64,000 nt of DNA from Alphaproteobacteria bacterium (GTDB lineage Bacteria; Pseudomonadota; Alphaproteobacteria; Rs-D84): positions 22,656 to 86,655 of the forward strand of contig JAFWJF010000008.1 in assembly GCA_017511715.1 (NCBI GenBank), written 5' to 3'. Of this stretch, positions 1,588 through 63,532 are shown piece by piece (positions within the stretch are counted from its first letter, which is position 1; each line of letters starts with the position of its first letter). The notes below the pieces were generated by a model. The model searched no databases, was not told the DNA's origin, and was given only the letters and a program-made list of their open reading frames with translations. Position numbers and translations under genes: made by a program.

Positions 1588-2684
1588 AAACAATACTTTT
1601 CAATTTAACCGATGGTGAATTAGAACAATTTATAACACAATTGGGGCAGCCTCGTTTTCGCAGCAAACAAGTCAGAGAATGGCTTAATCGTGGCGCACCA
1701 GATTTTAGTGTTATGAAAAATTTGCCAGAAGATTTAAGAAACAAACTATCTGAAATTGCTGAAACTCTGCCATTAAAAATTGTTAAACGATTGCAAAGCA
1801 GCGACAATCAAACAACCAAGTTTTTGTTGGAATTAAATGATTGCGAACAAATAGAGTGCGTTTTAATGCGCACAACATACGGCAACAGCGTTTGTGTTTC
1901 TTCCCAGGCAGGTTGTGCAATGGGATGCAAGTTTTGTGCGTCAACATTATTGGGGCTGAAACGCAATTTGACAGTTAATGAAATGTTTGCCCAGGTTTTA
2001 GTTGCTCAATGGGAATTACGCCGTGACAAAATGCGCGACATAAAACCAAATGGCGATGCGAACAACGGGGATGTTTCCCACATTGTTGTTATGGGTACAG
2101 GCGAACCTTTGCAAAATACAGAAAATGTTATCGGTTTTTTAGAGCGCGCCAACACAGAATTAAATATATCGTGGCGCCGCATAACCGTTTCTACATGCGG
2201 AATTGTTCCTGGAATAAATGAATTGAACAAATGGGGTCGTCCGATAAACATGGCGATATCACTGCATGCGCCAGATGATGATTTACGCAGTCAAATTATG
2301 CCTATTAACAACAAATACAAACTTCAAGAAGTTCTTGATGCCGCATTTGCGTTTTCTGACGCGCACAATCGACAATTAATGATTGAATATATACTACTTG
2401 GGCAAAAAGACAAAAACGATTCTGTGGTGCTTTATAACGCTTCTGAAGAGCATGCAAATAAACTATCAAAATTATTGCAAGGCCATAATGTTATGGTAAA
2501 CTTGATTCCATGGAACACAGTGGACGAACGTGATTTTGCATCTATATCTGGTAATGCCGTTCACCGATTCCAAGATATTTTAATAAAAAACGGTGTTCAT
2601 ACTCGAATCAGACGGGAACGGGGGGCGGATATTGGTTCTGCGTGTGGGCAATTAAGGCTTAAAAACGCAAAGGACAAAAAATGA
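1584..2684 (+). CDS. rlmN: 23S rRNA/tRNA (adenine-C2)-methyltransferase RlmN (radical SAM)
   Basis: Radical SAM CxxxCxxC in GCAMGCKFCAS. N-terminal QLGQPRFRSKQVREWL, VMGTGEPL and C-terminal GSACGQL all match RlmN. Confidence 0.9.
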   Translation: MKTILFNLTDGELEQFITQLGQPRFRSKQVREWLNRGAPDFSVMKNLPEDLRNKLSEIAETLPLKIVKRLQSSDNQTTKFLLELNDCEQIECVLMRTTYGNSVCVSSQAGCAMGCKFCASTLLGLKRNLTVNEMFAQVLVAQWELRRDKMRDIKPNGDANNGDVSHIVVMGTGEPLQNTENVIGFLERANTELNISWRRITVSTCGIVPGINELNKWGRPINMAISLHAPDDDLRSQIMPINNKYKLQEVLDAAFAFSDAHNRQLMIEYILLGQKDKNDSVVLYNASEEHANKLSKLLQGHNVMVNLIPWNTVDERDFASISGNAVHRFQDILIKNGVHTRIRRERGADIGSACGQLRLKNAKDKK

Positions 2685-3433
2685 AATTAAGATATATTAC
2701 GTGTTCTGACCCCCGCGAAGATATACCCATTGAATCAATATTGAATTTTTCAGAAAAATATCCAATCTCAGAAATTGGGGTCCAAGCACATGTTGGCCCA
2801 ATGTCTGAAAAAGAATCTCGTAATGTTTGGTTTAACAAGTTAATAGAATATGCAAAAAATTTAGAAAACGCACCAAATATAGCCTTGCATGTGAATTACC
2901 TTTGGTGTGATTATATGTGTCTTGGTTCTGTCCCCAACGAATTATCAGGCTGGATTTCTGCACGCAATACATATACAGGCAAACCCGTTGTAAAAAGAAT
3001 TCAATTAAATATTGGCGACAGAACTTTTTCTTTCAATTCATCAAAATTAGCAAAACTGATAAAACAATATTCCGACCAAGAATTTATTTTACCATGGAAC
3101 CCAAACACCGCACAGCAGATACAAGAATTAAAGAAAACACACACAAAGTTTTCGTTATTATTCGATGGGTCTTATGGTACAGGAATCGAACCGGACGAAT
3201 GGCAAAAACCTGTTTATAAATGCGTTCCAAACGGATATGCCGGGGGACTGGGGCCGGATAATGTCGCAAAGAATCTTGATAAGATAAACGCGATATTACC
3301 ACAAAAATATGAAACCTGGATAGATGCCGAAGGCAAACTGCGTAATTATAAGACAACGGGCTCTTTTACTTTGGAACTGGCAGAAAAATATATGCAAAAC
3401 GCGATTGCTTGGTATAATCAACACTCAAAATAA
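2681..3433 (+). CDS. TrpF-fold (phosphoribosylanthranilate isomerase-like) protein, paralog 1
   Basis: The pattern MKLRYITCSDPRE ... SLLFDGSYGTG ... GYAGGLGPDNV ... WIDAEGKLR parallels TrpF KICG ... LLDxxxGGxGKxFDW ... LAGGLxPENV ... DVSSGVE. ATGA overlap with rlmN. Confidence 0.6.
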   Translation: MKLRYITCSDPREDIPIESILNFSEKYPISEIGVQAHVGPMSEKESRNVWFNKLIEYAKNLENAPNIALHVNYLWCDYMCLGSVPNELSGWISARNTYTGKPVVKRIQLNIGDRTFSFNSSKLAKLIKQYSDQEFILPWNPNTAQQIQELKKTHTKFSLLFDGSYGTGIEPDEWQKPVYKCVPNGYAGGLGPDNVAKNLDKINAILPQKYETWIDAEGKLRNYKTTGSFTLELAEKYMQNAIAWYNQHSK

Positions 3434-3448
3434 TCAAAAGGTATAATA

Positions 3449-4201
3449 ATGAAATTAAGATATATAACTTGTTCTGATCCGCGCGAACAAAATTCTGTAA
3501 AATCTATTTTAGATTTGGCACACCTGCCACGCGCAGAAATAGCCGTTCAATGTCACCCCAGCAAAATGAGTGAAGGTATGCCCCGCAATCAATGGTTTAA
3601 TAAGTTATTGCGCGAAGCAAACATGACAGACAATGTTAATCTGGCAATCCATATTAATTGCGAATGGGCAAACGATATATGCGCAAACGGGAAAATCCCA
3701 GAAATAATATTAAACTGGCTGCAGATTGAAAGAGTATATAGCAAACCACTTATCGGACGCGTTCAATTAAATATGCCAAAAGCAACCGCAGATAATATAA
3801 ATACAGAATCATTGGCGCAAACAATTCACGATTTCAAGAACCAAGAATTTATTTTTCAATACAACGACAAAACCAAAGATGCAATTGAAAGATTGCACAG
3901 AACGGGTGCTAAATTTTCGCTTTTGTTTGATGCGTCTGGCGGAAACGGGAAAGCCCCAACCGCATGGCAAGCCCCTGTATACGAAACACACCCAATGGGA
4001 TACAGTGGCGGTATGTCACCCGAAAATGTTGCACGCAATCTGCATGAAATCGAAAAATTAGTCCCAGAAAACGAATCTGTATGGATAGATGCCGAAGGCA
4101 GACTTAAATCAAACGATTTGTTCTATGAAAAACCGGTGTTTGATGTCAACCTTGCCCGCGCTTATATTGAACGCGCAAACCTTTGGCAGAAACAACATTG
4201 A
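3449..4201 (+). CDS. TrpF-fold protein, paralog 2
   Basis: Same length (250 aa) and the same first 13 residues as paralog 1. SLLFDASGGNGKAPTAWQ, GYSGGMSPENV and WIDAEGRLK are present. AAAGG RBS upstream. Confidence 0.6.
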   Translation: MKLRYITCSDPREQNSVKSILDLAHLPRAEIAVQCHPSKMSEGMPRNQWFNKLLREANMTDNVNLAIHINCEWANDICANGKIPEIILNWLQIERVYSKPLIGRVQLNMPKATADNINTESLAQTIHDFKNQEFIFQYNDKTKDAIERLHRTGAKFSLLFDASGGNGKAPTAWQAPVYETHPMGYSGGMSPENVARNLHEIEKLVPENESVWIDAEGRLKSNDLFYEKPVFDVNLARAYIERANLWQKQH

Positions 4202-8115: not shown

Positions 8116-9728
8116 TTCAATTTCCTTATCTTTTTCTGAACATGTGGCACAACAATTAAATAATCATCAGACAAATCAAGCGCACGCATATACGATTCCT
8201 TTGCGCGTTCTTTATCGCCTTGTTTTTTATAAAAGTCCCCAAGATGTTCGTACACAGCAGATGTAGGTGTGATTTCACCAACCCGCTCTAGTATTTCTAG
8301 TGCGTTTGCAACGCCTTCTTTTTTTTCTATGATTTGACTTAACAAATCCCACGCCGAAATATCAGAAGTGTTCATCTTTATCAAAGACATTGCATAATCA
8401 TAAGCAGTGTCCAAATTTTTATCTTGCATCGCCCAAGCGCGCGCTTGCAATGCGACATAATCAGGTGTCATTTTATATTCCATATCACGAACCACGTCTA
8501 AGTCTTTTTGGGCGCGTTTTGCATCACCAAACATAATATACACATACGCACGCTGTTTAAGGAAATACACCCTGCCCTGATCCGACAAACCTTTTTGTTT
8601 TAAAGCCCTGTTTATAACAGACAATGCAAGCGATTTGTCGCCCCTTTTTATGCTTTCACGACCAATAACCTGAACCGCAGGAACAAACAAAGGATTTTGA
8701 CGCACAATTTTTTCTAGAGCCCTGATATCTTTGTTATTTTCTGCAATCTTTAATTGCCCAAAAAGATACAAAGGATTTGATTTGCTTATCTTGTTGAAAC
8801 TTGTTGCGAAATCGCCATTGTTATGAAAATAATATTGCCCCAAATAATAATTTATCGCATCTTGATAATTGCCGTCAGATATAATTTCTGCAAAACGCAA
8901 AAACATCAATGAAAAATCTGTATAAATCATAATCTGGGTATGCGATACTGTTTGAATCAGGCTGAATACCAAATTGTTTTTATAACCATCATAAATCGAC
9001 CAATCTGGGACATCTTCATACTGCAACATATACATACCGCCAACCTTGGCAACAAAGTCATCACGCAATATTTTCATATCTTCAATCATGTCATTATTTT
9101 TGTAAAAAGACATAAGGTAAAGATAATCATTAACATTCATGAATTCTGGATGAACCTTGGCAAATTCTTTGGCAGCCGTATCAATATCATTATTTAACAC
9201 CGCAATTTGACCACGAACAAAAGACTTCCAATTTTCATCTGCCTTGATTGAACTAATAAACTTTGCCGTATCTTTTGGGTTTCCGGTTTTAGAACCAGAA
9301 AAGATACGAATCGGTGCAGACAAAACAGAAGCGTCTTTGTTGTGACGTTTATAAACAGATTTCCAATCATCTTTCTGTATCAAGAACGCATCATAAATCA
9401 ACCCATTTACCACATCTTTGGAATCTTTCAAAGATTCTGCATTTTCAGGCATTTTGCCACCGAAAAAGTCTGTTAATTTCTTTATTTCTGCGACATTTTT
9501 GTTATCGGTTTTAACTGAATTAATCATCTTTGATGCGGCATCAAAATCATTGACATAAAGTGCATGTTGCGCCGCAAGGAAAGAACCATAATCAGTATCA
9601 ACAACCGTTCCAGCCTGCCCGGTTTTTCGCAGATTCATATCAAACACTTTCTGCCCCAATAAACAAGAGCAAAAAATCACAACCGCAATTAAAAACGGCC
9701 CTATATAAAAACTTTTTATTCCTTTCAT
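8109..9728 (-). CDS. Membrane-anchored tetratricopeptide-repeat protein
   Basis: Start set at MKGIKSFYIGPFLIAVVIFCSC (N-terminal TM). The C-terminal half has TPR-like repeats (YEHLGDFYKKQGDKERAKESYMRALDL). The listed ORF extension 9729..10121 is antisense to rsmG. Confidence 0.65.
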   Translation of the reverse strand: MKGIKSFYIGPFLIAVVIFCSCLLGQKVFDMNLRKTGQAGTVVDTDYGSFLAAQHALYVNDFDAASKMINSVKTDNKNVAEIKKLTDFFGGKMPENAESLKDSKDVVNGLIYDAFLIQKDDWKSVYKRHNKDASVLSAPIRIFSGSKTGNPKDTAKFISSIKADENWKSFVRGQIAVLNNDIDTAAKEFAKVHPEFMNVNDYLYLMSFYKNNDMIEDMKILRDDFVAKVGGMYMLQYEDVPDWSIYDGYKNNLVFSLIQTVSHTQIMIYTDFSLMFLRFAEIISDGNYQDAINYYLGQYYFHNNGDFATSFNKISKSNPLYLFGQLKIAENNKDIRALEKIVRQNPLFVPAVQVIGRESIKRGDKSLALSVINRALKQKGLSDQGRVYFLKQRAYVYIMFGDAKRAQKDLDVVRDMEYKMTPDYVALQARAWAMQDKNLDTAYDYAMSLIKMNTSDISAWDLLSQIIEKKEGVANALEILERVGEITPTSAVYEHLGDFYKKQGDKERAKESYMRALDLSDDYLIVVPHVQKKIRKLKW

Positions 9729-22536: not shown

Positions 22537-22565
22537 TTGAAATATGTTTATTTTTTGCTTAATAT
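22537..22565 (+). promoter_or_regulatory. Candidate sigma70 promoter for tRNA-Cys (and recF)
   Basis: TTGAAA, 17-nt spacer, TAATAT, ending 14 nt before the tRNA. Confidence 0.5.
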
Positions 22566-22579
22566 GTCCTTACGCGAAA

Positions 22580-22653
22580 GGCCAGGTGGCAGAGTGGTTA
22601 TGCAGAGGACTGCAAATCCTTGGATGCCGGTTCGATTCCGACCCTGGCCTCCA
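22580..22653 (+). tRNA. tRNA-Cys (anticodon GCA), CCA encoded
   Basis: Acceptor GGCCAGG/CCTGGCC; anticodon stem GAGGA/TCCTT with loop CTGCAAA; T loop TTCGATT. There is one C-A mismatch in the T stem. Confidence 0.85.
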
Positions 22654-22663
22654 TATATTAGAA

Positions 22664-23743
22664 ATGATAAACCAGATTACTCTTACTAATTTCAGAAATC
22701 ATATATCTTCGCGAATCACGATTGATAACGCAAAAAACATTATCATCACTGGTCTTAATGGTGCCGGCAAAACTGCTGTATTAGAGGCCGTATCGTTGCT
22801 CTGTGGGGAACGTGGCTTGCGCGGTGCAGAAATTCAGAATCTGGCACGATTTAACGGCGATGGTGGTTTTTCTGTATTTGCTACAACAGATGACGAAAGC
22901 GACGTATGCGTATTCTTGAATCCCGGCGATACAAATCGTCATGCAAAGATAGACAATGAAAATGTGGCGTTGGCTGAATTAGCAAAAAAACTGCGTATTA
23001 TATGGCTGACCCCAAAAGAAGACAGAATTTTTATGGAATCTGCCAGTGATAGACGTGCTTTTTTTGACAGATTGGCGGCTTCTTTTGAGCCATCTCATAT
23101 GGGACGCATCGCACGACTTAATAAGTTAATGTCAGAACGTGCAGGCGCAATAAAAAATGGGGCGGATAATAATTGGCTTAACGCGATTGATACACAAATT
23201 GCCGCGACATCTGTATCTGTTGCCGCAGGACGCATAAGATATGCGGGCGAAATAAACTATTTTTTTTCAAGCGGTGCAGTATCTGTCAATGGTTGCGTTG
23301 AAAAATTGGTTTTAGAAGAAAATGCAATGTATGCAGAAAAAAAATATCTTGAATATTTACAAAACAACCGTGAATTAATCGGGGACAAAATGGTTATTGA
23401 TGGCGTACACAAATCTGATTTTGGTGTGTTTAATAAAAAACTAAATTTACCCGCACAAATAACATCCACCGGTCAGCAAAAGGCAATTTTAATTGATTTA
23501 ATTTTGGCACATGCAAAGTTAGTTAATATCAAAACTGGTGTTGCGCCACTAATTTTGCTGGATGAAGCCGCAGCGCATCTGGATAATGAAGCGCGCGCAA
23601 AACTGTTTCATGATTTGAACGCATCTAATGCCCAGGTCTGGGCAACAGGCCTTGATGCAAATATATTCAGGAATATTCCAAATGCTTTATTTGTCACTTG
23701 CGTTGATGGCACAATAAATAATATAGTTATGACGGAGAATTAA
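22664..23743 (+). CDS. recF: DNA replication and repair protein RecF
   Basis: MINQITLTNFRNH plus Walker A GLNGAGKTAVLEA and C-terminal LLDEAAAHLD. The start at 22664 is 10 nt after the tRNA-Cys CCA; the listed ORF extension overlaps the tRNA. Confidence 0.88.
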   Translation: MINQITLTNFRNHISSRITIDNAKNIIITGLNGAGKTAVLEAVSLLCGERGLRGAEIQNLARFNGDGGFSVFATTDDESDVCVFLNPGDTNRHAKIDNENVALAELAKKLRIIWLTPKEDRIFMESASDRRAFFDRLAASFEPSHMGRIARLNKLMSERAGAIKNGADNNWLNAIDTQIAATSVSVAAGRIRYAGEINYFFSSGAVSVNGCVEKLVLEENAMYAEKKYLEYLQNNRELIGDKMVIDGVHKSDFGVFNKKLNLPAQITSTGQQKAILIDLILAHAKLVNIKTGVAPLILLDEAAAHLDNEARAKLFHDLNASNAQVWATGLDANIFRNIPNALFVTCVDGTINNIVMTEN

Positions 23744-27915: not shown

Positions 27916-27992
27916 GGGTGGTTAGCTCAGTTGGCTAGAGCGTCACGTTGACATCGTGGAGGTCGTTGGTTCGAGCCCAATACCACCCACCA
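27916..27992 (+). tRNA. tRNA-Val (anticodon GAC), CCA encoded
   Basis: Acceptor GGGTGGT/ACCACCC; anticodon stem TCACG/CGTGG with loop TTGACAT; T arm GTTGG-TTCGAGC-CCAAT. Confidence 0.9.
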
Positions 27993-28005
27993 CGAAATTC
28001 CAAAA

Positions 28006-28030
28006 GGCAACCAAAACGGTTGCTTTTTTT
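28006..28030 (+). terminator. Intrinsic terminator between tRNA-Val(GAC) and metG
   Basis: GCAACC-AAAAC-GGTTGC followed by seven T. It ends 21 nt before the metG ATG. Confidence 0.75.
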
Positions 28031-28051
28031 GTTCGAATCACAGAGGCACGC

Positions 28052-53757: not shown

Positions 53758-53831
53758 ATCTTTTCACCAATTAAAGTTGTTTTTTATTTATAATTCTTTT
53801 ATTATGTTAATATAATAAGTTGGTTATAAAT

Positions 53832-54524
53832 ATGTCATACCTTTGGCAAGAATTCAATATAAAAACTTTTCCAGCAGAAACATTAGTTTTCCGCGATGGT
53901 GTTTTTTGTGAAGATTTATCAGAATATGAAAGTGTTAAATTTAATAAACAAGAAAATTTAATATCTGTTGATAAAACACCAAACTTGCCTGTTCATATTA
54001 TATATATAGGTGAAGCTAGCGGCAATATAGACTTTTATATCAATATAAATGCAGAAAATACAAATATTGTCCTTGATTGGAAAACAACTAATAAAAAGCC
54101 GGTTTTTTTCAATTTGTTTATAAAAAATTTTGGAAAAAACAGTGTATTGAATGGTCAAATCATAGATAAAAACTATGATAAATTGAAAATAAATGTAAAA
54201 GCCCAACATTTAACCGAAAATACCGGTATTTTTGTGAAAACACGTGTTGTTGCATATAAAAATACATCGACAGACCTGCAAGGCAGCGCGATAATAGAAA
54301 AAAATGCAACAGACTGTGATTCTGATATATCTTTTTCGGTAATGGCTGATGAAAGTGCAAAGATTATATTAAAACCAACACAATATATAAATTCTGCACC
54401 TAAAAAGGCTTCACACACTGCTTCACTTTATAAACCAAATGAAAATCAGATAAAATATCTGCGAACATCTGGTTTGGGCACTATCGAAATAAAACAAGTT
54501 ATGGAAGAGGCTTTCCTTAATTAA
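53832..54524 (+). CDS. Short SufD/SufB-like beta-helix protein (orphan)
   Basis: The C-terminal KKASHTASLYKPNENQIKYLRTSGLGTIEIKQVMEEAF parallels SufD DDVKCSHGATVGxxDxxQxFYLxSRGIxxxxAxxM. Only about 230 aa, with no sufB/C/S nearby. Start set at the ATG at 53832. Confidence 0.5.
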   Translation: MSYLWQEFNIKTFPAETLVFRDGVFCEDLSEYESVKFNKQENLISVDKTPNLPVHIIYIGEASGNIDFYININAENTNIVLDWKTTNKKPVFFNLFIKNFGKNSVLNGQIIDKNYDKLKINVKAQHLTENTGIFVKTRVVAYKNTSTDLQGSAIIEKNATDCDSDISFSVMADESAKIILKPTQYINSAPKKASHTASLYKPNENQIKYLRTSGLGTIEIKQVMEEAFLN

Positions 54525-54580: not shown

Positions 54581-54715
54581 TTATTTTTTCTTGAAGCCCT
54601 GTTTAGCCTTTAATTTAGGATTAGAAGGGTCAATCAATATAACTTGTTTTCCACGGCGAATTTGTTTAATGTTTCCGCGTTTTTTCCAAGCCTTTAATGA
54701 ACTTAAAAATTTCAT
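54581..54715 (-). CDS. rpmJ: 50S ribosomal protein L36 (Cys-less, YkgO-like type)
   Basis: Hand-translated 44 aa, MKFLSSLKAWKKRGNIKQIRRGKQVILIDPSNPKLKAKQGFKKK. Too short for the ORF track. It resembles MKVLxSLKxxKxRxxxxxxVxRxGRxYVIxKxNPRFKAxQG. Confidence 0.8.
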   Translation of the reverse strand: MKFLSSLKAWKKRGNIKQIRRGKQVILIDPSNPKLKAKQGFKKK

Positions 54716-54846: not shown

Positions 54847-54998
54847 TTTTTCAACAAAAAAACCGGCTTTTTCCGGTGTTTTTATAAAAAATGTTGAAAA
54901 ATAGCACAAAAAATAAACATGTTGAAAAAACCGGTGTTTTTAATATTTTCAACAATTTTTATGAATTTTACTTTTATGCTTGTTGAAAAATGTTGAAA
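54847..54998. repeat. Array of six TGTTGAAA(A) boxes upstream of virB3
   Basis: Direct copies at 54892, 54920, 54981 and 54991; inverted copies at 54847-54856 and 54946-54954. These form two inverted pairs plus a tandem pair 10 bp apart. Confidence 0.85.
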
Positions 54999-55008
54999 TT
55001 GTTATAAT
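54980..55008 (+). promoter_or_regulatory. Candidate sigma70 promoter of virB3-virB4
   Basis: TTGTTG, 17-nt spacer, TATAAT, then AGGAGA RBS at 55021 and TTG start at 55031. Confidence 0.45.
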
Positions 55009-55030
55009 TGAATCATCAAGAGGAGAGATT

Positions 55031-55330
55031 TTGAGGCAAAAGGTCCTGAAAGCTTTGGCAAACCCGGCGCGCATATTTTATGTGCCTTATACTCTTGCTA
55101 TCTTGAATTTCTTGATTTGGTTTATGGTATTTGTGATTGCTATTATATTATTTACAGTTTTACCACCTAATAATATACCAATGTGGTTACCGTTAGTTTT
55201 TTTGGGTATATTAGCACTTACACACAGTATATTGGCGTTTTATTCCAAAAAAGACCCACAGATATCACAACTTATATTTTCAAGTGTAAAAATAATAAAA
55301 AACAGAATACCAAGAAGACTAGTAGTATAA
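55031..55330 (+). CDS. virB3: Type IV secretion system protein VirB3
   Basis: LKALANPARIFYVPYTLAILN followed by two TM helices matches the VirB3 pattern (KGLTRPxxxxGVP). TTG start 4 nt after AGGAGA. It lies immediately upstream of virB4. Confidence 0.75.
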   Translation: MRQKVLKALANPARIFYVPYTLAILNFLIWFMVFVIAIILFTVLPPNNIPMWLPLVFLGILALTHSILAFYSKKDPQISQLIFSSVKIIKNRIPRRLVV

Positions 55331-55333
55331 AAA

Positions 55334-57748
55334 ATGGAAAAATTATTTGATTATTTTGCTGGAAATTTAGATTCTATGACGATGACTTTGGTTATAATAT
55401 CAATGTCTGTGATAGTTGTGTTTTTGATATTGTTGGCATATATCCCGACAATAACAAAAAAAGTTTTTCCAAAATTTGGGTATGCAAAATATTCTGATTA
55501 TTTGCCTTTTAATAATGTTTATAGTGATGACAGTTTATCTGTAGATGATGGTTCTTTGGTTCGTGTTTACAGAATAAAAGGTATACAGACCAGTATGATG
55601 AGCGATGAAAATCGTGAAAAAATGCTAGATTTAAGGGCTCAATTATTCAACCAAATAGAAGACCCAGATGTTTATCTTCGATTTTTCACAATTCGTGATT
55701 TCATAGACCAGAAAACAGATTATGAATTTGATCAGCCTGTTTTACAGAAAATATATGATAAGTGGAATAATCAAGGGTTGAAAATCTATTCTAATAATTA
55801 TTATGTTGTTGTGTCTGTCCATGGTCAAAATAATCGTGAAAAGTTAAATCAATGTTGTAATTATATTGAATCAATGTTGGCTGCATATAAACCGACACTG
55901 TTAAGAAATAACACTACAGATAACATGGCAACATTTTTTGGTCGTATTTTATCGCCTGTATCAAAACCAGTGATAAAAAAATGTGATGAAAATATTTCAA
56001 GACTGGTAAGTGTTGATAATGTTGAATTCTTGAAAAATGGTGTTATTGCATATACCAGTGGTGATAAAACTTATTATGCTGCTGCACTTTCTTTCAAAAT
56101 ATCGCCTGATTATATGGATGAAGAATTTTTTGATGCTGTTGCAACAATTCAGTGTGAAATGATAAATATGAATGCTCTGCATATTCTGCAATCAAGTGAT
56201 ATAGAAGTTTTAATGCGTCAACATCGTTCAACAATCACTGATGAAACAGAAGAATCTACATTAGAACAAATAAGTGAAGCACAATCTTCGATGGATGAAA
56301 ATAAAACTGGAAATCAGACATTGGTTGATTATTATCCGTTGTTTATGTTGTTTGCATCAAATATGGAAGAATTAGACGAATATGTTGATGAATTTAAGAA
56401 AATAGCCGCATCTTTTGGTATATCACCGGTTGTTGAAAATTTTGCATCCAAAGTTTCATTTTTTGCACAATTACCGGGGTTTGATGTGTTCCCAAGAACA
56501 TTTAAGATGTTATCAAAAACAGCGGCGACAAGTATTCCTTTGTCATCTATGCCAACAGGTGTTGAAAACAGTGATTGGGGTCCGGGACCGTTGGTTGTTT
56601 TCCCAACAGCCCAAGGAACACCATATCAATTTCAATTTCATGTTTCTGATAAACCAGCAGCGGTTGGACACACTCTTACTATTGGTCCAACTGGTGGTGG
56701 TAAGACAACTTTGTTCTCGTTTCTTATTTCTCAATCATTACGTCATCAAAAATTGAAAGCATTTTTCTTTGACAGAAACAAAGGCGCAGAAATATTTACA
56801 TTGGCAGTTGGTGGTAAATATATCACGATGAATAGTAAAGAAAAAGATGCGGATAAAGATGCCTTTTTAACACACTTGAACCCATTAAAAATGCCGGATA
56901 GCAGCAGTAATCGTGCGTTTTTACGTCGTTGGTTTTCAATGATAACTAATGTTAATGATGCGGAATCAATGGACGAAATTGCACGTGCTGTATCTGTTAA
57001 TTTTGATTATTTACAAGATAAAGACAGATTATTGAAAAATCTTTATGAAAGTTGTTTTTCATCCAGTGGTAAAATGCGTCAGGAATTGAAAAAATGGATA
57101 GACCCATTGCAATATGGTGATATATTTAATGAAGAAAGTGATACTCTTGATTTAGGTGCACGTTTAACAACATTTGATTTTACTGAAATATTGCAAGATG
57201 AAGTTTTAGCACCTGCGGTAATATCTTATATTTTGCATCGTATTAATAATGTGACTGTATCTGGTGGAAATCCTTCGCTTATCATGATTGATGAAACTGC
57301 GCCAATGTTAGAAAATAAAATGTTCCGTGATAATTTTATTGCAGGACTTCAAGAAGGTCGTAAAAATCGTCAGGCGTATATGGTGGCATTCCAACGCGCA
57401 AATGTTCTTGATAAACTTGGGATAGGTGATGTTGTTCGTGGTCAGGCACAAACAGTATTATTCTTCCGTAACCCAGCAGCAGATGTAAGCGATTATGAAA
57501 AATGGAATCTGAACCCACTTGAAATGGCATTTATCAAGGGTCAGGCATATCCAAACCTTAAACGTGCGGTATTGTTATCAAGACCTGTTAATGGGGAATC
57601 TGTGATTCTTAATACTGAATTAGGTGGTTTGGGTAATATGTTGAAATTGTTCGAATCTGGTCGTTCATCTGTTTTACTGGCAGAAGAGTTATATAAAACA
57701 TATGGAAATAATTTTGTTGCAGAATATCTAAAAAAGCAAACAATATAG
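55334..57748 (+). CDS. virB4: Type IV secretion system ATPase VirB4
   Basis: 804 aa. Walker A IGPTGGGKTT, Walker B-like LIMIDETAPML, N-terminal TM segment; it follows virB3. Confidence 0.9.
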   Translation: MEKLFDYFAGNLDSMTMTLVIISMSVIVVFLILLAYIPTITKKVFPKFGYAKYSDYLPFNNVYSDDSLSVDDGSLVRVYRIKGIQTSMMSDENREKMLDLRAQLFNQIEDPDVYLRFFTIRDFIDQKTDYEFDQPVLQKIYDKWNNQGLKIYSNNYYVVVSVHGQNNREKLNQCCNYIESMLAAYKPTLLRNNTTDNMATFFGRILSPVSKPVIKKCDENISRLVSVDNVEFLKNGVIAYTSGDKTYYAAALSFKISPDYMDEEFFDAVATIQCEMINMNALHILQSSDIEVLMRQHRSTITDETEESTLEQISEAQSSMDENKTGNQTLVDYYPLFMLFASNMEELDEYVDEFKKIAASFGISPVVENFASKVSFFAQLPGFDVFPRTFKMLSKTAATSIPLSSMPTGVENSDWGPGPLVVFPTAQGTPYQFQFHVSDKPAAVGHTLTIGPTGGGKTTLFSFLISQSLRHQKLKAFFFDRNKGAEIFTLAVGGKYITMNSKEKDADKDAFLTHLNPLKMPDSSSNRAFLRRWFSMITNVNDAESMDEIARAVSVNFDYLQDKDRLLKNLYESCFSSSGKMRQELKKWIDPLQYGDIFNEESDTLDLGARLTTFDFTEILQDEVLAPAVISYILHRINNVTVSGGNPSLIMIDETAPMLENKMFRDNFIAGLQEGRKNRQAYMVAFQRANVLDKLGIGDVVRGQAQTVLFFRNPAADVSDYEKWNLNPLEMAFIKGQAYPNLKRAVLLSRPVNGESVILNTELGGLGNMLKLFESGRSSVLLAEELYKTYGNNFVAEYLKKQTI

Positions 57749-57751
57749 TAT

Positions 57752-58390
57752 ATGTTTAAGAATATAATCTTTTTATCAGTATTGTTTTTACCAAATGTTT
57801 TATTTGCGTATGATTGTTCGCGATATCAATATGATGTTGATATAGATATAAAATTTAATATAAAAGATATTGAAACAAAAAAATCAGATGAAGAATTGGT
57901 TGGAAAGTTAGGTTATACAGAACCAATAATATCATATACTGCGATGGCAAGTACTGTGATAATACCTGTACACGGTGGATTTTGTGTGTCTTTGCGTGGC
58001 ATAGATATAGAAATAAATGAAGATTTTAATGTTATTATTGATAAAAGATTGAAAGAAAATTCTTGTGCTTATGACATAGTGTTTAGACACGAACAAGACC
58101 ATGTTGATGTTTATAAAACTGTTATAAAAGACAGTTTAGATGAAATACAAAAATCAATTAAAAAAGGTGCAAAAAGTCTGAAACCTGTGTTTATAAAAAG
58201 CGACAAAGAAATACCTGATTTTTCTGAAAAGATTAACAACAGCGATTTTGTCGCTGAAATAAAAGAAAAAATTAAAGAAAAACTTAAAACAGAAAATGAA
58301 AAGATAGATGAACGTGGCGACAGTTTTTATATCTGGAAATGTGATGATTTTTATAAAGAAATGAAAAATTCTGGTATAGTAATAGACTAA
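57752..58390 (+). CDS. Secreted HExxH protein, paralog A (putative Zn-metallopeptidase, DUF922-like)
   Basis: Signal peptide MFKNIIFLSVLFLPNVLFA. HEQDH at nt 58088-58102. Four Cys are conserved with paralog B. It starts 3 nt after the virB4 stop. Confidence 0.55.
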   Translation: MFKNIIFLSVLFLPNVLFAYDCSRYQYDVDIDIKFNIKDIETKKSDEELVGKLGYTEPIISYTAMASTVIIPVHGGFCVSLRGIDIEINEDFNVIIDKRLKENSCAYDIVFRHEQDHVDVYKTVIKDSLDEIQKSIKKGAKSLKPVFIKSDKEIPDFSEKINNSDFVAEIKEKIKEKLKTENEKIDERGDSFYIWKCDDFYKEMKNSGIVID

Positions 58391-58391
58391 T

Positions 58392-59006
58392 ATGAAGCGT
58401 ATTATTTTTGTGTTTTTATCGTTTTTTATTTCTGGTGCATTTGCATCAGATGATTGTATTGATTATAAATTAACACCAAATATCACAATAAAATCGCCAG
58501 TTTGGACAAAAAGCGTTGTTCAACCATTAAAAAAAATGGATGTTTTACACGGAAATGTTGCTGCGACACTGATTGATGAGTTTGAGATAACAGCAGATAT
58601 TACTTCCATAGAAGACGGTTTTTGTGTTGCACTTAAAAATGTAGATGCAACGATAGGATATTCAGATTTTTTGGTACAAATAGATATATCACACAAACCA
58701 AACACGTGTTCTTATAATGCAATTTTACAGCATGAAGATGAACATATTCGGGCCTATTTATCAGTCATAGAAGACAATAAAGACTTATTCGCAAAATCTA
58801 TAAAAAATGCGGCAGATTCAATAGTTCCTGTATTTATCAAAAACGAAAAAGATATAGAATCTGCAATTGATAAATTAAATAATGAATTACAAAACCACCC
58901 AGATATTGTATTACTTAAACAGCAAATTCGTACAGACGAAGAAATTCGTAATAAATATGTGGATATTAATGATACCGGGGAAACACTGAAAAGGTGTTTT
59001 GATTAA
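58392..59006 (+). CDS. Secreted HExxH protein, paralog B
   Basis: Signal peptide MKRIIFVFLSFFISGAFA. HEDEH at nt 58731-58745. It shares GFCV, N(S/T)C.Y, KSIK and PVFIK blocks with paralog A and starts 1 nt after the paralog A stop. Confidence 0.55.
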   Translation: MKRIIFVFLSFFISGAFASDDCIDYKLTPNITIKSPVWTKSVVQPLKKMDVLHGNVAATLIDEFEITADITSIEDGFCVALKNVDATIGYSDFLVQIDISHKPNTCSYNAILQHEDEHIRAYLSVIEDNKDLFAKSIKNAADSIVPVFIKNEKDIESAIDKLNNELQNHPDIVLLKQQIRTDEEIRNKYVDINDTGETLKRCFD

Positions 59007-59086: not shown

Positions 59087-59941
59087 ATGCCACGCGTATC
59101 TGTTTTAACACCTATTTATAATACAAAACCACAATATTTGCGCGAATGTATAGAAAGCATACTTAACCAAACTTTCAAGGACTTTGAGTTTTTAATTCTT
59201 AATGATAGTCCAGATAATAAAGAAATTGAAAAAATAGTTAAAGATTATGCTTACAAAGATAAACGCATAAAATATTACAAAAATGATAAAAATATAGGAA
59301 TCGCTAAATCTAGAAATAAACTGTTAGATTTGGCATCTGGTGAATATATCGCTGTTTTTGACCATGATGATATTTCATTGCCAACGCGTTTAGAACAAGA
59401 AGTAAAAATATTAGATGAAAACCCAAAAATTGGGGCGGTGAGTGGTTTTTTAAGGCTTTTTGATTGTAAAAAAACAGGTTCGTTGCATACATGTCCGGAA
59501 CATGATTTTGAAATAAAATGTACTATGACATCAGGATGTTGGTTTCCGCATACTGCATCCATGCTTCGTAAATCTGTATTAGATGAAAACAATATAAGAT
59601 ATGAAGAATATTTTACACCCTGTGAAGATTACCAATTATGGAATCGTTTAATGGATGTGACTAAATTTTATTGTATTCAATCTGTATTGGTTGATTACCG
59701 CAATTTTGACGGTAACACAACACACAAAACAAAAAATCAGATGGATATGTTGCATACTGTGATAAAAGCAGATATTTCAGGGCGGTATCCAGAATATGCA
59801 ACATGGTTCAAAAGATATACAGACAATGCTGGAACTTTATTTCGCTTGCGTTTATTCGAATTTATCCCATTGTTAAAAATCAAAAATAATAAAATTTATT
59901 TATTTGAGTTTATACCAGTAATTAAAATAAGGTGGAAATAA
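59087..59941 (+). CDS. Family 2 glycosyltransferase
   Basis: VSVLTPIYNTKPQYLRECIESILNQTFKDFEFLILNDSPDN and DHDDIS (DxD). Confidence 0.85.
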   Translation: MPRVSVLTPIYNTKPQYLRECIESILNQTFKDFEFLILNDSPDNKEIEKIVKDYAYKDKRIKYYKNDKNIGIAKSRNKLLDLASGEYIAVFDHDDISLPTRLEQEVKILDENPKIGAVSGFLRLFDCKKTGSLHTCPEHDFEIKCTMTSGCWFPHTASMLRKSVLDENNIRYEEYFTPCEDYQLWNRLMDVTKFYCIQSVLVDYRNFDGNTTHKTKNQMDMLHTVIKADISGRYPEYATWFKRYTDNAGTLFRLRLFEFIPLLKIKNNKIYLFEFIPVIKIRWK

Positions 59942-60846
59942 TGCCAAAGGCACTTGTTGTAATTCATTTTTATTATGCTGAACAAGTAGATACAATATTA
60001 AATTTGTTGAAAAACATATCTGTTGAATATGATTTATATTGTTCGATAAGTAATAAAGATAAATATGAATATATTAAACAAAAAGTATTAAATTATAAAC
60101 CAAATGCCCATATAGTTAATGTGGCAAATGTTGGTTATGATGTTTGGCCATTCTGTTATGTAATAAATAATGTAAATTTAGCAGACTATGATTACATAAT
60201 AAAATTACATACAAAGCGTGATACACCAGGTGATTTACCGACTCCTTTGGGAAATGGTTATTTTGTTGGACCTGGATGCAGATGGCGTGAAAATTTATAC
60301 GCTTTTATTGCAAGCAAAGAAAACTTTAATAAATGTTTAGATGCATTGAAAAATCCAAAAATTGGTATGTGTGCAAGATTTAATCTGATTCATGGTATGG
60401 CAAATCATTGTGGTGTAATTAGTGCAGCAAAGAAAAAGTATCCCAAATATATTCTTAAATTACGTGATTTTAGTTTTGTTGCAGGAACAATGTTTATTGC
60501 CAAGGCTGCGCCTTTCCAAATTTTGAAAGATATGCAAATAAGTGAACAATTATTTGAAAAACCAAACCAGAAACACGATATGCAATTTGCACATGTTATT
60601 GAAAGAACTATTGGTGAAATTATTTATAAATCTGGTATGAAAATTGTTGATCCTTTTACTCCGAAAAAATATGTTAAAGAAGTAAGAAAACAAGAAAAAA
60701 AATTAGTTTTTCTAAAACGGGCAATAAATTATCTGGTTTTTCTTATACCTGTTCCATATATAAGACGAAAATCGCGTATATTTCTTATGGATAAATTTTT
60801 TATACCACATGTTCATATTGTTATAGATACAGACAAAAGGTTTTAA
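59932..60846 (+). CDS. RgpF-like (rhamnan synthesis protein F family) polysaccharide biosynthesis protein
   Basis: LVVIHFYYAEQVDTILNLLKNI..YDLYCSI, NVGYDVWPF and IIKLHTKRD resemble RgpF family blocks as I recall them. Confidence 0.55.
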   Translation: MEIMPKALVVIHFYYAEQVDTILNLLKNISVEYDLYCSISNKDKYEYIKQKVLNYKPNAHIVNVANVGYDVWPFCYVINNVNLADYDYIIKLHTKRDTPGDLPTPLGNGYFVGPGCRWRENLYAFIASKENFNKCLDALKNPKIGMCARFNLIHGMANHCGVISAAKKKYPKYILKLRDFSFVAGTMFIAKAAPFQILKDMQISEQLFEKPNQKHDMQFAHVIERTIGEIIYKSGMKIVDPFTPKKYVKEVRKQEKKLVFLKRAINYLVFLIPVPYIRRKSRIFLMDKFFIPHVHIVIDTDKRF

Positions 60847-60847
60847 T

Positions 60848-61789
60848 ATGCCAAAAGTTAGTGTAATTATACCTGTTTATAATACGGAAAAATATCTCTC
60901 TAGGTGTTTGGATAGTATTGTAAATCAAACATACAAAGATTTAGAGATAATTTGTATAAATGATGGCAGTACAGATGATTCGCTAAAAATATTGAAAGAA
61001 TATGCCAAAAAAGACAAACGCATAAAGATTATAACACAAAAGAACCAAGGTCTTTCTGTGACACGTAATGTTGGTTTGGAAAATATTACTGGTCAATATA
61101 TAAGTTTTATAGATTCTGATGATTATGTTGATTTAGATTATTATGAATGTTTAGTAAATTTAATGGAAAAAAACAATGCAGATGTTGTAATGTGCGGGAT
61201 GAGAATTGTCGATAATGATGTTGTATCAAAAAACACAACACCGAATATGACGACAAATAATTTTATCAAAAAAATACAAAACCTTCCAAATGGTAGCACC
61301 TGCGATAAATTGTTCAAGGCAGATTTGTTTAAGAATCTAACGTTTCCTGTGGGAAAATATTATGAAGATAATATTGTTTTGTTGAAAACGATGTTTTATT
61401 CTGATGTGGTGGTATTTACTAACAAGGTATCATACTATTATTTTATGAATTATTCTGGAATATGTCGAACAACAGATGAAAATATTATAAAAAGACGAAA
61501 AGAAGACAGATTGTATGCAGCTAAAATAATGATGAGTTTTGCAAAAGAACACGGTTTTGACAAATCAAAACAAGTAAAAGATTTTATAGTCAGAACCGTT
61601 GCAAGTGATTTTATCACAGAAGAATCTCCTTATTATAGAGAAATTAAAAATATCTTAGGAAAACGATATGTATTAAAGCACAATGGAAAAAATTTAACTG
61701 CGAAAATAAAAAAATTTTTACTCAGAATTTTGTGTTTGTTTATTCCGGTAAGAACTTGGCGACATAAAATAAAAGATTTTTTCAACTAA
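60848..61789 (+). CDS. Family 2 glycosyltransferase
   Basis: VSVIIPVYNTEKYLSRCLDSIVNQTYKDLEIICINDGSTD and DSDDYV. Confidence 0.85.
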   Translation: MPKVSVIIPVYNTEKYLSRCLDSIVNQTYKDLEIICINDGSTDDSLKILKEYAKKDKRIKIITQKNQGLSVTRNVGLENITGQYISFIDSDDYVDLDYYECLVNLMEKNNADVVMCGMRIVDNDVVSKNTTPNMTTNNFIKKIQNLPNGSTCDKLFKADLFKNLTFPVGKYYEDNIVLLKTMFYSDVVVFTNKVSYYYFMNYSGICRTTDENIIKRRKEDRLYAAKIMMSFAKEHGFDKSKQVKDFIVRTVASDFITEESPYYREIKNILGKRYVLKHNGKNLTAKIKKFLLRILCLFIPVRTWRHKIKDFFN

Positions 61790-61801
61790 AAAGGATGTGT
61801 T

Positions 61802-62641
61802 ATGAAAAAAACACCACGTATTTCAGTTATAATGCCGGCATATAATTCTGAAAAATATATTGGCGAAGCCATTGAATCTATATTAAATCAAACATTCAAA
61901 GATTTCGAATTGATTATTATTAACGATGGCTCAACAGACAATACTGCAAAAATAGTTAAAGAATATGCAAAAAAAGACAAAAGAATTAATTTTGTAGATA
62001 ATAAAAAAAATCAAGGATTGATTTCAGTATTAAATCAAGGTATTGATTTGTGTCGTGGGGAATATATTGCGCGTATGGACAGTGATGATATATCTTTGCC
62101 AACACGGTTTGCAAAACAAATTGAATATATGGATGCGCATCATGAATGTGGTGTTTTGGGAACATGGTTTCAATGTTTTGGTAATTCTACCGCAAAGGTT
62201 CGACATCCAGAACGTATAAAAATATTAAACATATTGCATGATCAACATGTTGGGCATCCGACTGTTATGGTGCGAAAATCTGTTATGGACAATTATGGTT
62301 TTTATTATGATGCAAATTATAAACATGCCGAAGATTTTGAATTGTGGTCACGAATGGTTTTTGTCACAGAAATTCGTAATTTGCCAGAAATTTTATTAAA
62401 ATATAGGTGGGGCAATACAAATGTCAGTGTATTGCACGCAACAGAACAACTTGATGCAGCAAATCATGTTAAACAAAATATTTTGGATAAACTAACAGAT
62501 GATTCTGTTAAACAACAAATGATTTTAAATGAAAATAAACCTGGATTTTTATTGCCAAAGTGGTTAGGTCGTATTTGTTGTTTGTTTATATTTAAACGCG
62601 AAAATCGTCATAATTTTCGCGATAGATATGTAAGGGATTAA
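61802..62641 (+). CDS. Family 2 glycosyltransferase (paralog of 59087..59941)
   Basis: ISVIMPAYNSEKYIGEAIESILNQTFKDFELIIINDGSTDN and DSDDISLPTRF. Confidence 0.85.
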   Translation: MKKTPRISVIMPAYNSEKYIGEAIESILNQTFKDFELIIINDGSTDNTAKIVKEYAKKDKRINFVDNKKNQGLISVLNQGIDLCRGEYIARMDSDDISLPTRFAKQIEYMDAHHECGVLGTWFQCFGNSTAKVRHPERIKILNILHDQHVGHPTVMVRKSVMDNYGFYYDANYKHAEDFELWSRMVFVTEIRNLPEILLKYRWGNTNVSVLHATEQLDAANHVKQNILDKLTDDSVKQQMILNENKPGFLLPKWLGRICCLFIFKRENRHNFRDRYVRD

Positions 62642-63532
62642 ATGATGAATTTTTTTAAGAAAATATATGATAAATTTTTTCCTGGTCAAGAAGCGATCAG
62701 TTTAGAACGAATAAATTTAGATGATTCGCAATTATTAAATTGTCTGCGTGAATTGGGTGAGTTTTCTTATATGCCGAACAGTGGTAATATTGGCGATATG
62801 TTGATTGCATCTGCGACATTACAATGGTTTGATGCAAACGGTATAAAGTATAAACGGACATCAGAAAACGAAACACCAAATATATTTGTTTATGGTGGCG
62901 GTGGCGCATGGACACGCGATTATATTCAATGGATGGGACCGTTGATGGACAAGATGAAACAAGCGAAAAAGGTTGTTATTTTACCATCGTCTTTTAATGA
63001 TGTGCCGGAATTTATAAAGATACTGGACGAACGTTTTATAGTCTTTTGTCGAGAAAAGAAATCATACGATTATCTGAAATCTCAAAAAACCAAGGCTACA
63101 ATATTATTGGATCACGATATGGCTTTGCGGCTAAGCTGTGTTCCAGATGGCAAAAAAATTCCGAAAAAATATAAAAAACAATACAAGAAAATGAACAAGG
63201 CATTGCAAAAATTACCTAAAACCGCAGATTTATTCAGAACAGATGTTGAATCACATGGGCATTATAAATCTGATTTTGATATTTCAGATGCGTTTGGGTG
63301 GTTTTCGCCATATGAAAAACGCGAAATAATAGATTTTGCCGCAAGAACTATGTTGAAAATGGTTAATAAATTCGATAAAGTCAAAACAGACAGATTGCAT
63401 GTTGGTATTGCATCAATGTTTGTTGGTGCAGATGTCGAATTATATGATAATTCATACGGCAAAATCAGCGGTGTTTATGAAAATTCACTTAGTAAATTGA
63501 AAAATGTTATCTTGAAATATAAAAAGGACTAA
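62642..63532 (+). CDS. Polysaccharide pyruvyl transferase family protein
   Basis: SGNIGDMLIASATLQWF near the N-terminus and C-terminal TDRLHVGIASMFVG are typical of PS_pyruv_trans (CsaB/WcaK-like). Confidence 0.6.
   Translation: MMNFFKKIYDKFFPGQEAISLERINLDDSQLLNCLRELGEFSYMPNSGNIGDMLIASATLQWFDANGIKYKRTSENETPNIFVYGGGGAWTRDYIQWMGPLMDKMKQAKKVVILPSSFNDVPEFIKILDERFIVFCREKKSYDYLKSQKTKATILLDHDMALRLSCVPDGKKIPKKYKKQYKKMNKALQKLPKTADLFRTDVESHGHYKSDFDISDAFGWFSPYEKREIIDFAARTMLKMVNKFDKVKTDRLHVGIASMFVGADVELYDNSYGKISGVYENSLSKLKNVILKYKKD

Follow-up and report, generated by a model that had tools for sequence, protein, structure and literature searches.

Secreted HExxH...Asp proteins encoded behind virB3-virB4 in Rs-D84 Alphaproteobacteria: an unnamed family of candidate envelope hydrolases with a tentative link to type IV secretion

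In the rvh-type type IV secretion system (T4SS), a virB3-virB4-virB6 islet sits among the housekeeping genes of a reduced alphaproteobacterial chromosome. The genes of this Rickettsiales system are scattered (PMC2653234). We analysed a virB3-virB4 locus in a 64,000-nucleotide stretch (hereafter the window) of contig JAFWJF010000008.1, which comes from an uncultured, genome-reduced gut/rumen alphaproteobacterium ('Candidatus Enterousia', order Rs-D84) and in which virB4 is followed by two genes for secreted HExxH proteins, here called P1 and P2. The Rs-D84 locus resembles the rvh arrangement in that virB3-virB4 form an islet on the chromosome, surrounded by housekeeping genes, with the other parts, if any, elsewhere, but differs in that an HExxH family gene, and not a series of virB6 copies, follows virB4, with no VirB6-like polytopic protein within 10 kb. 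The nearest plasmid relatives of its VirB4 (32% identity) lie in canonical virB2-B3-B4-B5-B6-B8-B9-B10-B11-D4 clusters. Members of Enterousia have genomes of ~0.75-1 Mb, lack a tricarboxylic acid cycle and respiration and are probably dependent on a partner, and their description does not mention a T4SS (PMC12306168); the literature on Enterousia, Rs-D84 and DUF922 yielded no study of the family to which P1 and P2 belong, nor of T4SSs in these bacteria. Judging from gene order across related genomes, the family gene appears to have become part of the virB3-virB4 operon in Rs-D84.

All four genes lie head to tail on the + strand, with gaps of 3 nt between virB4 and P1 and of 1 nt between P1 and P2. 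A first-pass annotation of the window had reported the open reading frame (ORF) sizes, these gaps, the HExxH coordinates, signal peptides, four cysteines and a set of shared sequence blocks, all of which were confirmed on the sequence:

54922-54949 (+), promoter-like site TTGAAA-16-TATTTT just 5' of virB3, from a consensus scan (weak)
54980-55330 (+), virB3-like gene, listed as an ORF of 116 amino acids with a TTG start (Pfam PF05101, E=1.1e-5; NCBIfam PRK13899, E=6.3e-5)
55334-57748 (+), virB4, T4SS ATPase of 804 amino acids (TIGR00929, E=1.6e-115; Pfam CagE_TrbE_VirB, E=1.8e-15)
57752-58390 (+), P1, ORF of 212 amino acids with an ATG at 57752; extra, faster-evolving paralog of the secreted HExxH...D family
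57752-57808 (+), predicted signal peptide of P1, residues 1-19, predicted cleavage LFA/YD (sequence reading, -3/-1 rule and a helical N-terminus of low predicted local distance difference test score, pLDDT)
58088-58102 (+), HEQDH of P1 (H113, E114, H117), invariant in 28 of 28 P1 orthologs, on predicted helix 105-127
58307-58309 (+), Asp186 of P1 (motif IDERGD), an invariant column and candidate third metal ligand
58392-59006 (+), P2, ORF of 204 amino acids; universal copy of the secreted HExxH...D family
58392-58445 (+), predicted signal peptide of P2, residues 1-18, predicted cleavage AFA/SD (sequence reading; pLDDT <50 at residues 11-19)
58731-58745 (+), HEDEH of P2 (H114, E115, H118), conserved in the family, on predicted helix 106-128
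58962-58964 (+), Asp191 of P2, at the end of helix 170-192, conserved in 332 of 332 sequences; candidate third metal ligand

The start of the virB3-like gene possibly lies downstream of the listed TTG, its orthologs being called at 98-102 amino acids. The virB4 product carries the Walker A motif GPTGGGKT, and its stop codon is the TAG that ends at 57748. The promoter-like site before virB3, with a hairpin 5' of it at 54862-54877, may mark the start of a virB3-virB4-P1-P2 transcript; such sites are weak evidence, showing no enrichment over shuffled sequence in the region, and another (likewise weak) lies 3' of P2. No convincing terminator-like site was seen between virB3 and P2 in a sequence scan, itself weak evidence, and an Rfam scan of 52-60 kb gave no real match.

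P1 and P2 are paralogs (33% identity over 208 amino acids, E=4e-24 by BLASTP) that have in common four cysteines and the blocks GFCV, N(S/T)CxY, KSIK and PVFIK. Their N-termini look Sec-type (…VLFA|YDC in P1 and …GAFA|SDDC in P2), neither has a lipobox, and the signal peptide is the sole hydrophobic segment of either protein.

The locus was surveyed by tblastn and hidden Markov model (HMM) searches in 47 or more loci, the presence of P1 and P2 being counted over 42 genomes with flanks of ~20 kb per genome. P2 occurred in all 42 genomes, as well as on metagenome contigs, and followed virB4, directly or behind P1, in every related locus holding the junction, which bears out the tight coupling to virB3-virB4 proposed from the window. 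The order ychF(-)/SufBD-like/rpmJ(-)/virB3/virB4/P2 recurred in every Rs-D84-type locus extending that far, and virB3 was kept in all related loci reaching that far upstream. In 39 of 49 loci 2-6 nt separate the virB4 stop from the family gene's first in-frame ATG. In L062, a deeper lineage whose P2-type protein has only 30% identity, the arrangement is unchanged and the gene overlaps virB4 by 8 nt. Co-directional, tightly spaced and conserved across genomes, virB3-virB4-P2 has the form of a T4SS operon. Identity to the window across Rs-D84 genomes ranges over 72-93% for VirB4 and 59-84% for P2, the conservation of P2 being on a par with that of VirB3. The GTDB genomes with P2 relatives belong to 'Candidatus Enterousia' and other uncultured gut/rumen Alphaproteobacteria, including a circular metagenome-assembled genome (MAG) of 958,618 bp.

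P1 was found in only ~11 of the 42 genomes, a subset of Enterousia, at 43-75% identity, and is evolving faster than P2, which stands alone behind virB4 in ~30 of the 42. The conserved unit is therefore virB3-virB4-P2 and not the pair described in the first-pass annotation. Downstream of P2 the genes differ among the window and loci L001, L002, L004, L052 and L062, so that rearrangement breakpoints are located directly behind P2, the virB4-P2 junction being spared. A different extra paralog, P0211, follows P2 on another contig; with P1 before P2 and P0211 after it, virB4 has gained neighbouring copies in at least two independent events. In a neighbour-joining tree P1 falls outside the P2 clade, a placement that may reflect long-branch attraction. 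Tandem pairs of family genes recur independently, in L051 (845-2481) and L057 (4953-6274), with no T4SS nearby, and in L063 (88-1369), where virB4 is followed by a P2-type gene and another paralog; they may hint at hetero-oligomers.

Several neighbours of the cassette deserve mention in their own right. All Rs-D84 loci encode, just 5' of the virB3 cassette, a lone SufBD-core-like protein of 234 amino acids (53820-54524, +; SUFBD_core E=9e-9, a score under those of the SufB/SufD equivalogs); sufC was not seen nearby. Between it and virB3, a 44-amino-acid ORF (54581-54715, -) reads, on inspection of its sequence alone, like bL36 (rpmJ, alphaproteobacterial type), and a terminator-like hairpin (54549-54530, -) lies close to it. 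Right after P2 comes a surface-polysaccharide cluster (59087-63532, +) with three glycosyltransferase family 2 (GT2) genes, an RgpF-like gene and a polysaccharide pyruvyl transferase; its GC content is 0.28-0.32, as against ~0.37-0.43 in the first 48 kb, and this neighbourhood is not kept in other genomes. Several Enterousia genomes carry genes of type IV pili, a PilO-like one and one for a PilB/T2SSE ATPase of ~540 amino acids, a few kb 3' of the cassette (L004, 13460-16639, and also L006, L008, L024 and L046); according to the published description of the order, such genes are reported only for a different lineage, UBA9783 (PMC12306168).

P1 and P2 belong to a large family that is new to Pfam, NCBIfam and PGAP naming, none of its members having a Pfam or NCBIfam assignment. 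At 50% identity, an exhaustive profile search retrieved 1,107 cluster representatives with E<=1e-3, or 221 under the stricter limit of E<=1e-10; searches with P1 gave 58 clusters (43-93% identity) and with P2 597 clusters, and a genome scan with the protein P0219 matched only in its own MAG. Among 343 aligned sequences (P2 numbering), H114 was conserved in 337 of 337, E115 in 337 of 337, H118 in 336 of 337 and D191 in 332 of 332, and the four cysteines at 99% or more. C22, G54, C78, C106, H114, E115, H118, D191 and C202 stay invariant in alignments down to 17-20% identity, all 321 full-length members carry HExxH, and 291 of these 321 have a hydrophobic N-terminus; in a distant subgroup a Tyr is often conserved five residues after the invariant Asp. 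The joint invariance of H-E-x-x-H, D191 and four cysteines puts the motif far beyond chance and gives it a functional look, and the invariant Glu115 would favour catalysis over a purely structural metal site. The family also occurs in cultured Methylobacteriaceae, in Microvirga (WP_203447134.1, named 'hypothetical protein' by PGAP) and on the megaplasmid of Methylorubrum extorquens AM1.

AlphaFold2 predicted the same architecture for both proteins (pLDDT 90.4 and predicted template modelling score, pTM, 0.79 for P2; pLDDT 87.3 for P1), a soluble β/α domain with three long antiparallel strands of ~20 residues each, a long helix bearing HExxH and several further helices, D191 falling at the end of the penultimate long helix of P2. 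Filtered mean-field direct-coupling analysis (DCA; effective number of sequences ~170) was usable but weak, pairs among invariant columns being artefacts; by its contacts, the HExxH helix packs on strands β2/β3 and on the C-terminal helix, the D191 region comes close to the sheet, and C22 is coupled to C78. Sequence-profile searches of the PDB with family alignments found no solved relative, SitA appearing only at E=0.12. Profile matches to apolipoproteins A-I/A-IV were rejected as compositional (amphipathic helices), and local Foldseek matches to hemolysin pore stems (E ~3) reflect the long hairpin only.

A resemblance to DUF922/COG5661, annotated as a predicted secreted Zn-dependent protease, had been suggested on first reading and corresponds to a real but remote signal. 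Like P1 and P2, DUF922 proteins are small, secreted, common in Alphaproteobacteria and have ~90 residues before HExxH. Scanned member by member, DUF922 (PF06037) was the only recurrent weak Pfam family, matching 4 of 42 members (best E=0.064) in one set and 16 of 78 (best E=0.0023) in another, always in one register that runs onward from profile positions 82-88 at the start of the HExxH helix and covers mainly that helix. None reached the 27-bit gathering score, the best attaining 17.4 bits (E=0.0048), and P1 and P2 themselves did not match DUF922 at E<=1. Next came further HExxH zincin-type domains (eCIS_core in 6 of 78, Peptidase_M56, Tox-MPTase2 and SprT-like), recurrent weak matches going to domains of this type only, and a tblastn search of plasmids for genuine DUF922 sequences returned only two members of the unnamed family and one spurious match. 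These profile scores point to a remote relation and not to membership; at best the family would be a sister family or clan-level relative of DUF922, which is itself uncharacterised and zincin-like only through a weak FFAS score of -7.4 (PMC3650047). As in zincins, the predicted P1 and P2 structures have HExxH on an α-helix with a conserved Glu, and an HExxH helix after a β-sheet together with an invariant downstream Asp recalls, in the models, the aspzincins (HExxH + D). The family differs in that neither sequence nor fold comparison linked it to a solved zincin, and three ~20-residue strands without a helix within the N-terminal sheet region set P1 and P2 apart from the classical zincin N-terminal subdomain.

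Linkage to virB4 was found in Rs-D84-type loci and in L062, and the family as a whole is not T4SS-specific. In two distinct alphaproteobacterial MAG lineages (L048 and L049) the family gene overlaps the stop of mltA within a secB/Tim44-like/mltA cluster; elsewhere, cultured Methylobacteriaceae included, it stands alone by erpA/argS/SPOR-type housekeeping genes or occurs in tandem pairs with no T4SS nearby. The family HMM found no member in the canonical clusters that hold the nearest plasmid VirB4 relatives (L060 and L061).

P1 and P2 lie where VirB5 and VirB6 would be expected, but do not replace either of them by homology. P2 shares with VirB5/TrbJ (PF07996) the slot after VirB4, a similar length and a signal peptide, but is not homologous to it, the family HMM having no match in the canonical loci, and differs in predicted architecture (mixed β/α versus all-helical VirB5). 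As a divergent VirB5 it was rejected on hhalign probabilities of 0.2-0.3% against two VirB5-slot proteins and on the lack of a Pfam match; the VirB5-slot protein of Erythrobacter does match PF07996. A VirB6/TrbL identity was likewise dismissed for P1 and P2, which have no TrbL match and are not polytopic. P2 is not a VirB5 or VirB6 substitute.

The account that we favour, as possible and somewhat short of probable, is that P1 and P2 are periplasmic envelope metallo-hydrolases co-opted as a T4SS accessory factor in Rs-D84. P2 and its duplicate P1 would be exported by Sec to the periplasm, where two probable disulfides (C22-C78 and C106-C202, P2 numbering) would stabilise the fold. A metal would be bound by both HExxH histidines and most likely Asp191, with Glu115 as the putative catalytic base, and the proteins would act as zincin-like metal-dependent hydrolases. 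Because members in other lineages show translational coupling to mltA, the general job of the family may be sought in the cell envelope, with remodelling of peptidoglycan or of envelope proteins as the most plausible task. In Rs-D84 a single family gene, fixed behind virB3-virB4 and presumably co-transcribed with them, would most likely help the T4SS inner-membrane complex to assemble through the wall, a niche filled elsewhere by VirB1. Like VirB1, P2 would be an accessory enzyme of the periplasm, exported by Sec and specified by a virB operon, and the wall-opening theme is echoed by the mltA coupling; the likeness would be a functional analogy only, P1 and P2 lacking an SLT or lysozyme-like domain and being predicted metal-dependent hydrolases, as opposed to a glycan lyase. 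The VirB1-like wall-remodelling role suggested on first reading gains independent support from the mltA coupling of distant members. P1 and P2 are not themselves transglycosylases of the VirB1 type, having no SLT or MltA match in Pfam or NCBIfam.

A number of results weigh against the accessory-hydrolase account. No meaningful Pfam or NCBIfam match, be it to a peptidase, to DUF922 or to TrbL, was obtained for P1 or P2, and the 'metallopeptidase' label given at first reading derives from the motif, which neither a peptidase profile nor a Foldseek zincin match has backed. Foldseek searches of both models against the PDB returned no zincin or other fold (best E=0.12 and 1.2, TM score ~0.1-0.2), and a search of P2 against BFVD nothing significant (best E=0.02, with SprT-like and IrrE-like matches at E~1); the predicted fold is novel-looking and confident, without a PDB match. 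Linkage to mltA is found in only two of ~7 independent contexts outside Rs-D84. VirB2, B5, B6, B8, B9, B10 and MltA were not detected in the window or the fetched Rs-D84 flanks (~10 kb of the cassette) by phmmer with Microvirga and Erythrobacter VirB seeds, a search of flanks only and of limited sensitivity that found VirB3, VirB4 and PilB-like ATPases only. Two features of the locus itself point the same way: in L006 (MAG RUG12958) a GT10 fucosyltransferase-like gene (8282-9319, +) lies between virB4 and P1, the only interrupted junction, so that the coupling to virB4 is not obligatory; and the whole ychF/SufBD-like/rpmJ/virB3/virB4/P2 block is syntenic in reduced genomes, which makes adjacency weaker evidence of shared function.

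These last two features are what would be expected under the main rival explanation, which we regard as unlikely, if a serious contender: a housekeeping periplasmic enzyme with no tie to the T4SS, whose position behind virB4 is frozen synteny in compact genomes. The unrelated genes ychF, rpmJ, SufBD-like, dnaG and topA are also syntenic with the cassette, other Alphaproteobacteria carry the family by mltA, by erpA/argS/SPOR genes, alone or in pairs with no T4SS nearby, and where P1 is absent P2 is the only family copy within the ~20 kb fetched per genome. Frozen synteny does not readily account for gaps of 2-6 nt or overlaps in nearly all loci, which imply co-transcription and probably coupled translation, for the build-up of breakpoints behind P2 with the virB4-P2 junction left intact, or for extra copies (P1 and P0211) that joined virB4 at least twice independently.

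A bolder form of the accessory-hydrolase account would make the proteins a new family and fold of periplasmic HExxH...Asp hydrolases that partner wall-cutters such as MltA and, in Rs-D84, serve a minimal, scattered T4SS as its dedicated factor for wall opening or maturation, replacing VirB1 without homology to it, with the extra copies P1 and P0211 drawn in beside virB4 time and again; we consider this rather improbable.

Pertussis toxin is exported by Sec, folded in the periplasm and then moved across the outer membrane by the Ptl T4SS. By analogy with this ptx-ptl logic, to which signal peptides, disulfide-type cysteines and linkage to a T4SS operon would conform, P1 and P2 might be metalloprotease effectors that pass through Sec, periplasmic folding and oxidation and then the T4SS, to act on a host or partner cell. 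We think this improbable: the much faster evolution of P1 (43-75% identity, against 59-84% for P2) is often seen in effectors and Rs-D84 is predicted to be partner-dependent (PMC12306168), but P2 is as conserved as VirB3, which is atypical of an effector, the family is widespread in genomes that have it beside mltA or housekeeping genes, without a T4SS in the vicinity, and no outer-membrane T4SS parts were seen in the fetched flanks.

Of similarly low probability in our view is a structural T4SS subunit, P2 being a non-homologous stand-in (a stalk or VirB5-like, or a VirB7/B9-like, component) with HExxH...D as a structural metal site. In the closest canonical systems VirB5 occupies the slot after virB4, P2 is like VirB5 in size and signal peptide, and long β-hairpins with a helical bundle could oligomerise, as the weak local matches to pore-toxin stems might suggest. 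Set against this are the silence of the family HMM in canonical T4SS loci, the hhalign values and PF07996 match of the VirB5-slot proteins given above, and the wide occurrence of the family away from T4SSs; a structural site, moreover, would not need the invariant Glu of HExxH.

Least credible is a non-catalytic regulator or inhibitor of MltA-type transglycosylases, or of a wall-cutter of the Rs-D84 T4SS, since, although the family gene overlaps mltA in two lineages and periplasmic wall-hydrolase inhibitors with conserved cysteines exist (the Ivy and MliC types), H-E-x-x-H and the Asp are completely invariant, as catalytic metal centres typically are, and no MltA gene was found in the fetched Rs-D84 DNA (flanks, not whole genomes).

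The remainder of the window is ordinary chromosome, with pnp, mutS, parAB, mreBCD-pbp2-rodA, topA, dnaG and four tRNAs. The gene for a secreted trypsin-like serine protease (34333-35340, -; Pfam Trypsin E=3e-9) shares 4 nt with that for a secreted protein of 311 amino acids with no family assignment (35337-36272, -), and the two may be another exported pair. Tandem paralogs of 250 amino acids (2681-3433, + and 3449-4201, +), both starting MKLRYITCSDPRE, had no Pfam match. The ORF-list entries 22544-23743 and 27956-30034 run through tRNA-Cys (22580-22653) and tRNA-Val (27916-27992), respectively, so that the true starts of the recF-like gene and metS lie further downstream.

Overall, the observation made in the window is confirmed and its interpretation partly supported. 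If the position of P2 were frozen synteny after all, the T4SS angle would be gone and the family would still be a well-defined target for function discovery, the characterisation of which would define a new alphaproteobacterial envelope enzyme. Fixed behind virB3-virB4 in a whole order, P2 offers a way into the question of how a pared-down T4SS comes together when neither VirB1 nor VirB5 can be recognised, and this would bear on the interactions of these unculturable and probably partner-dependent bacteria with other cells.

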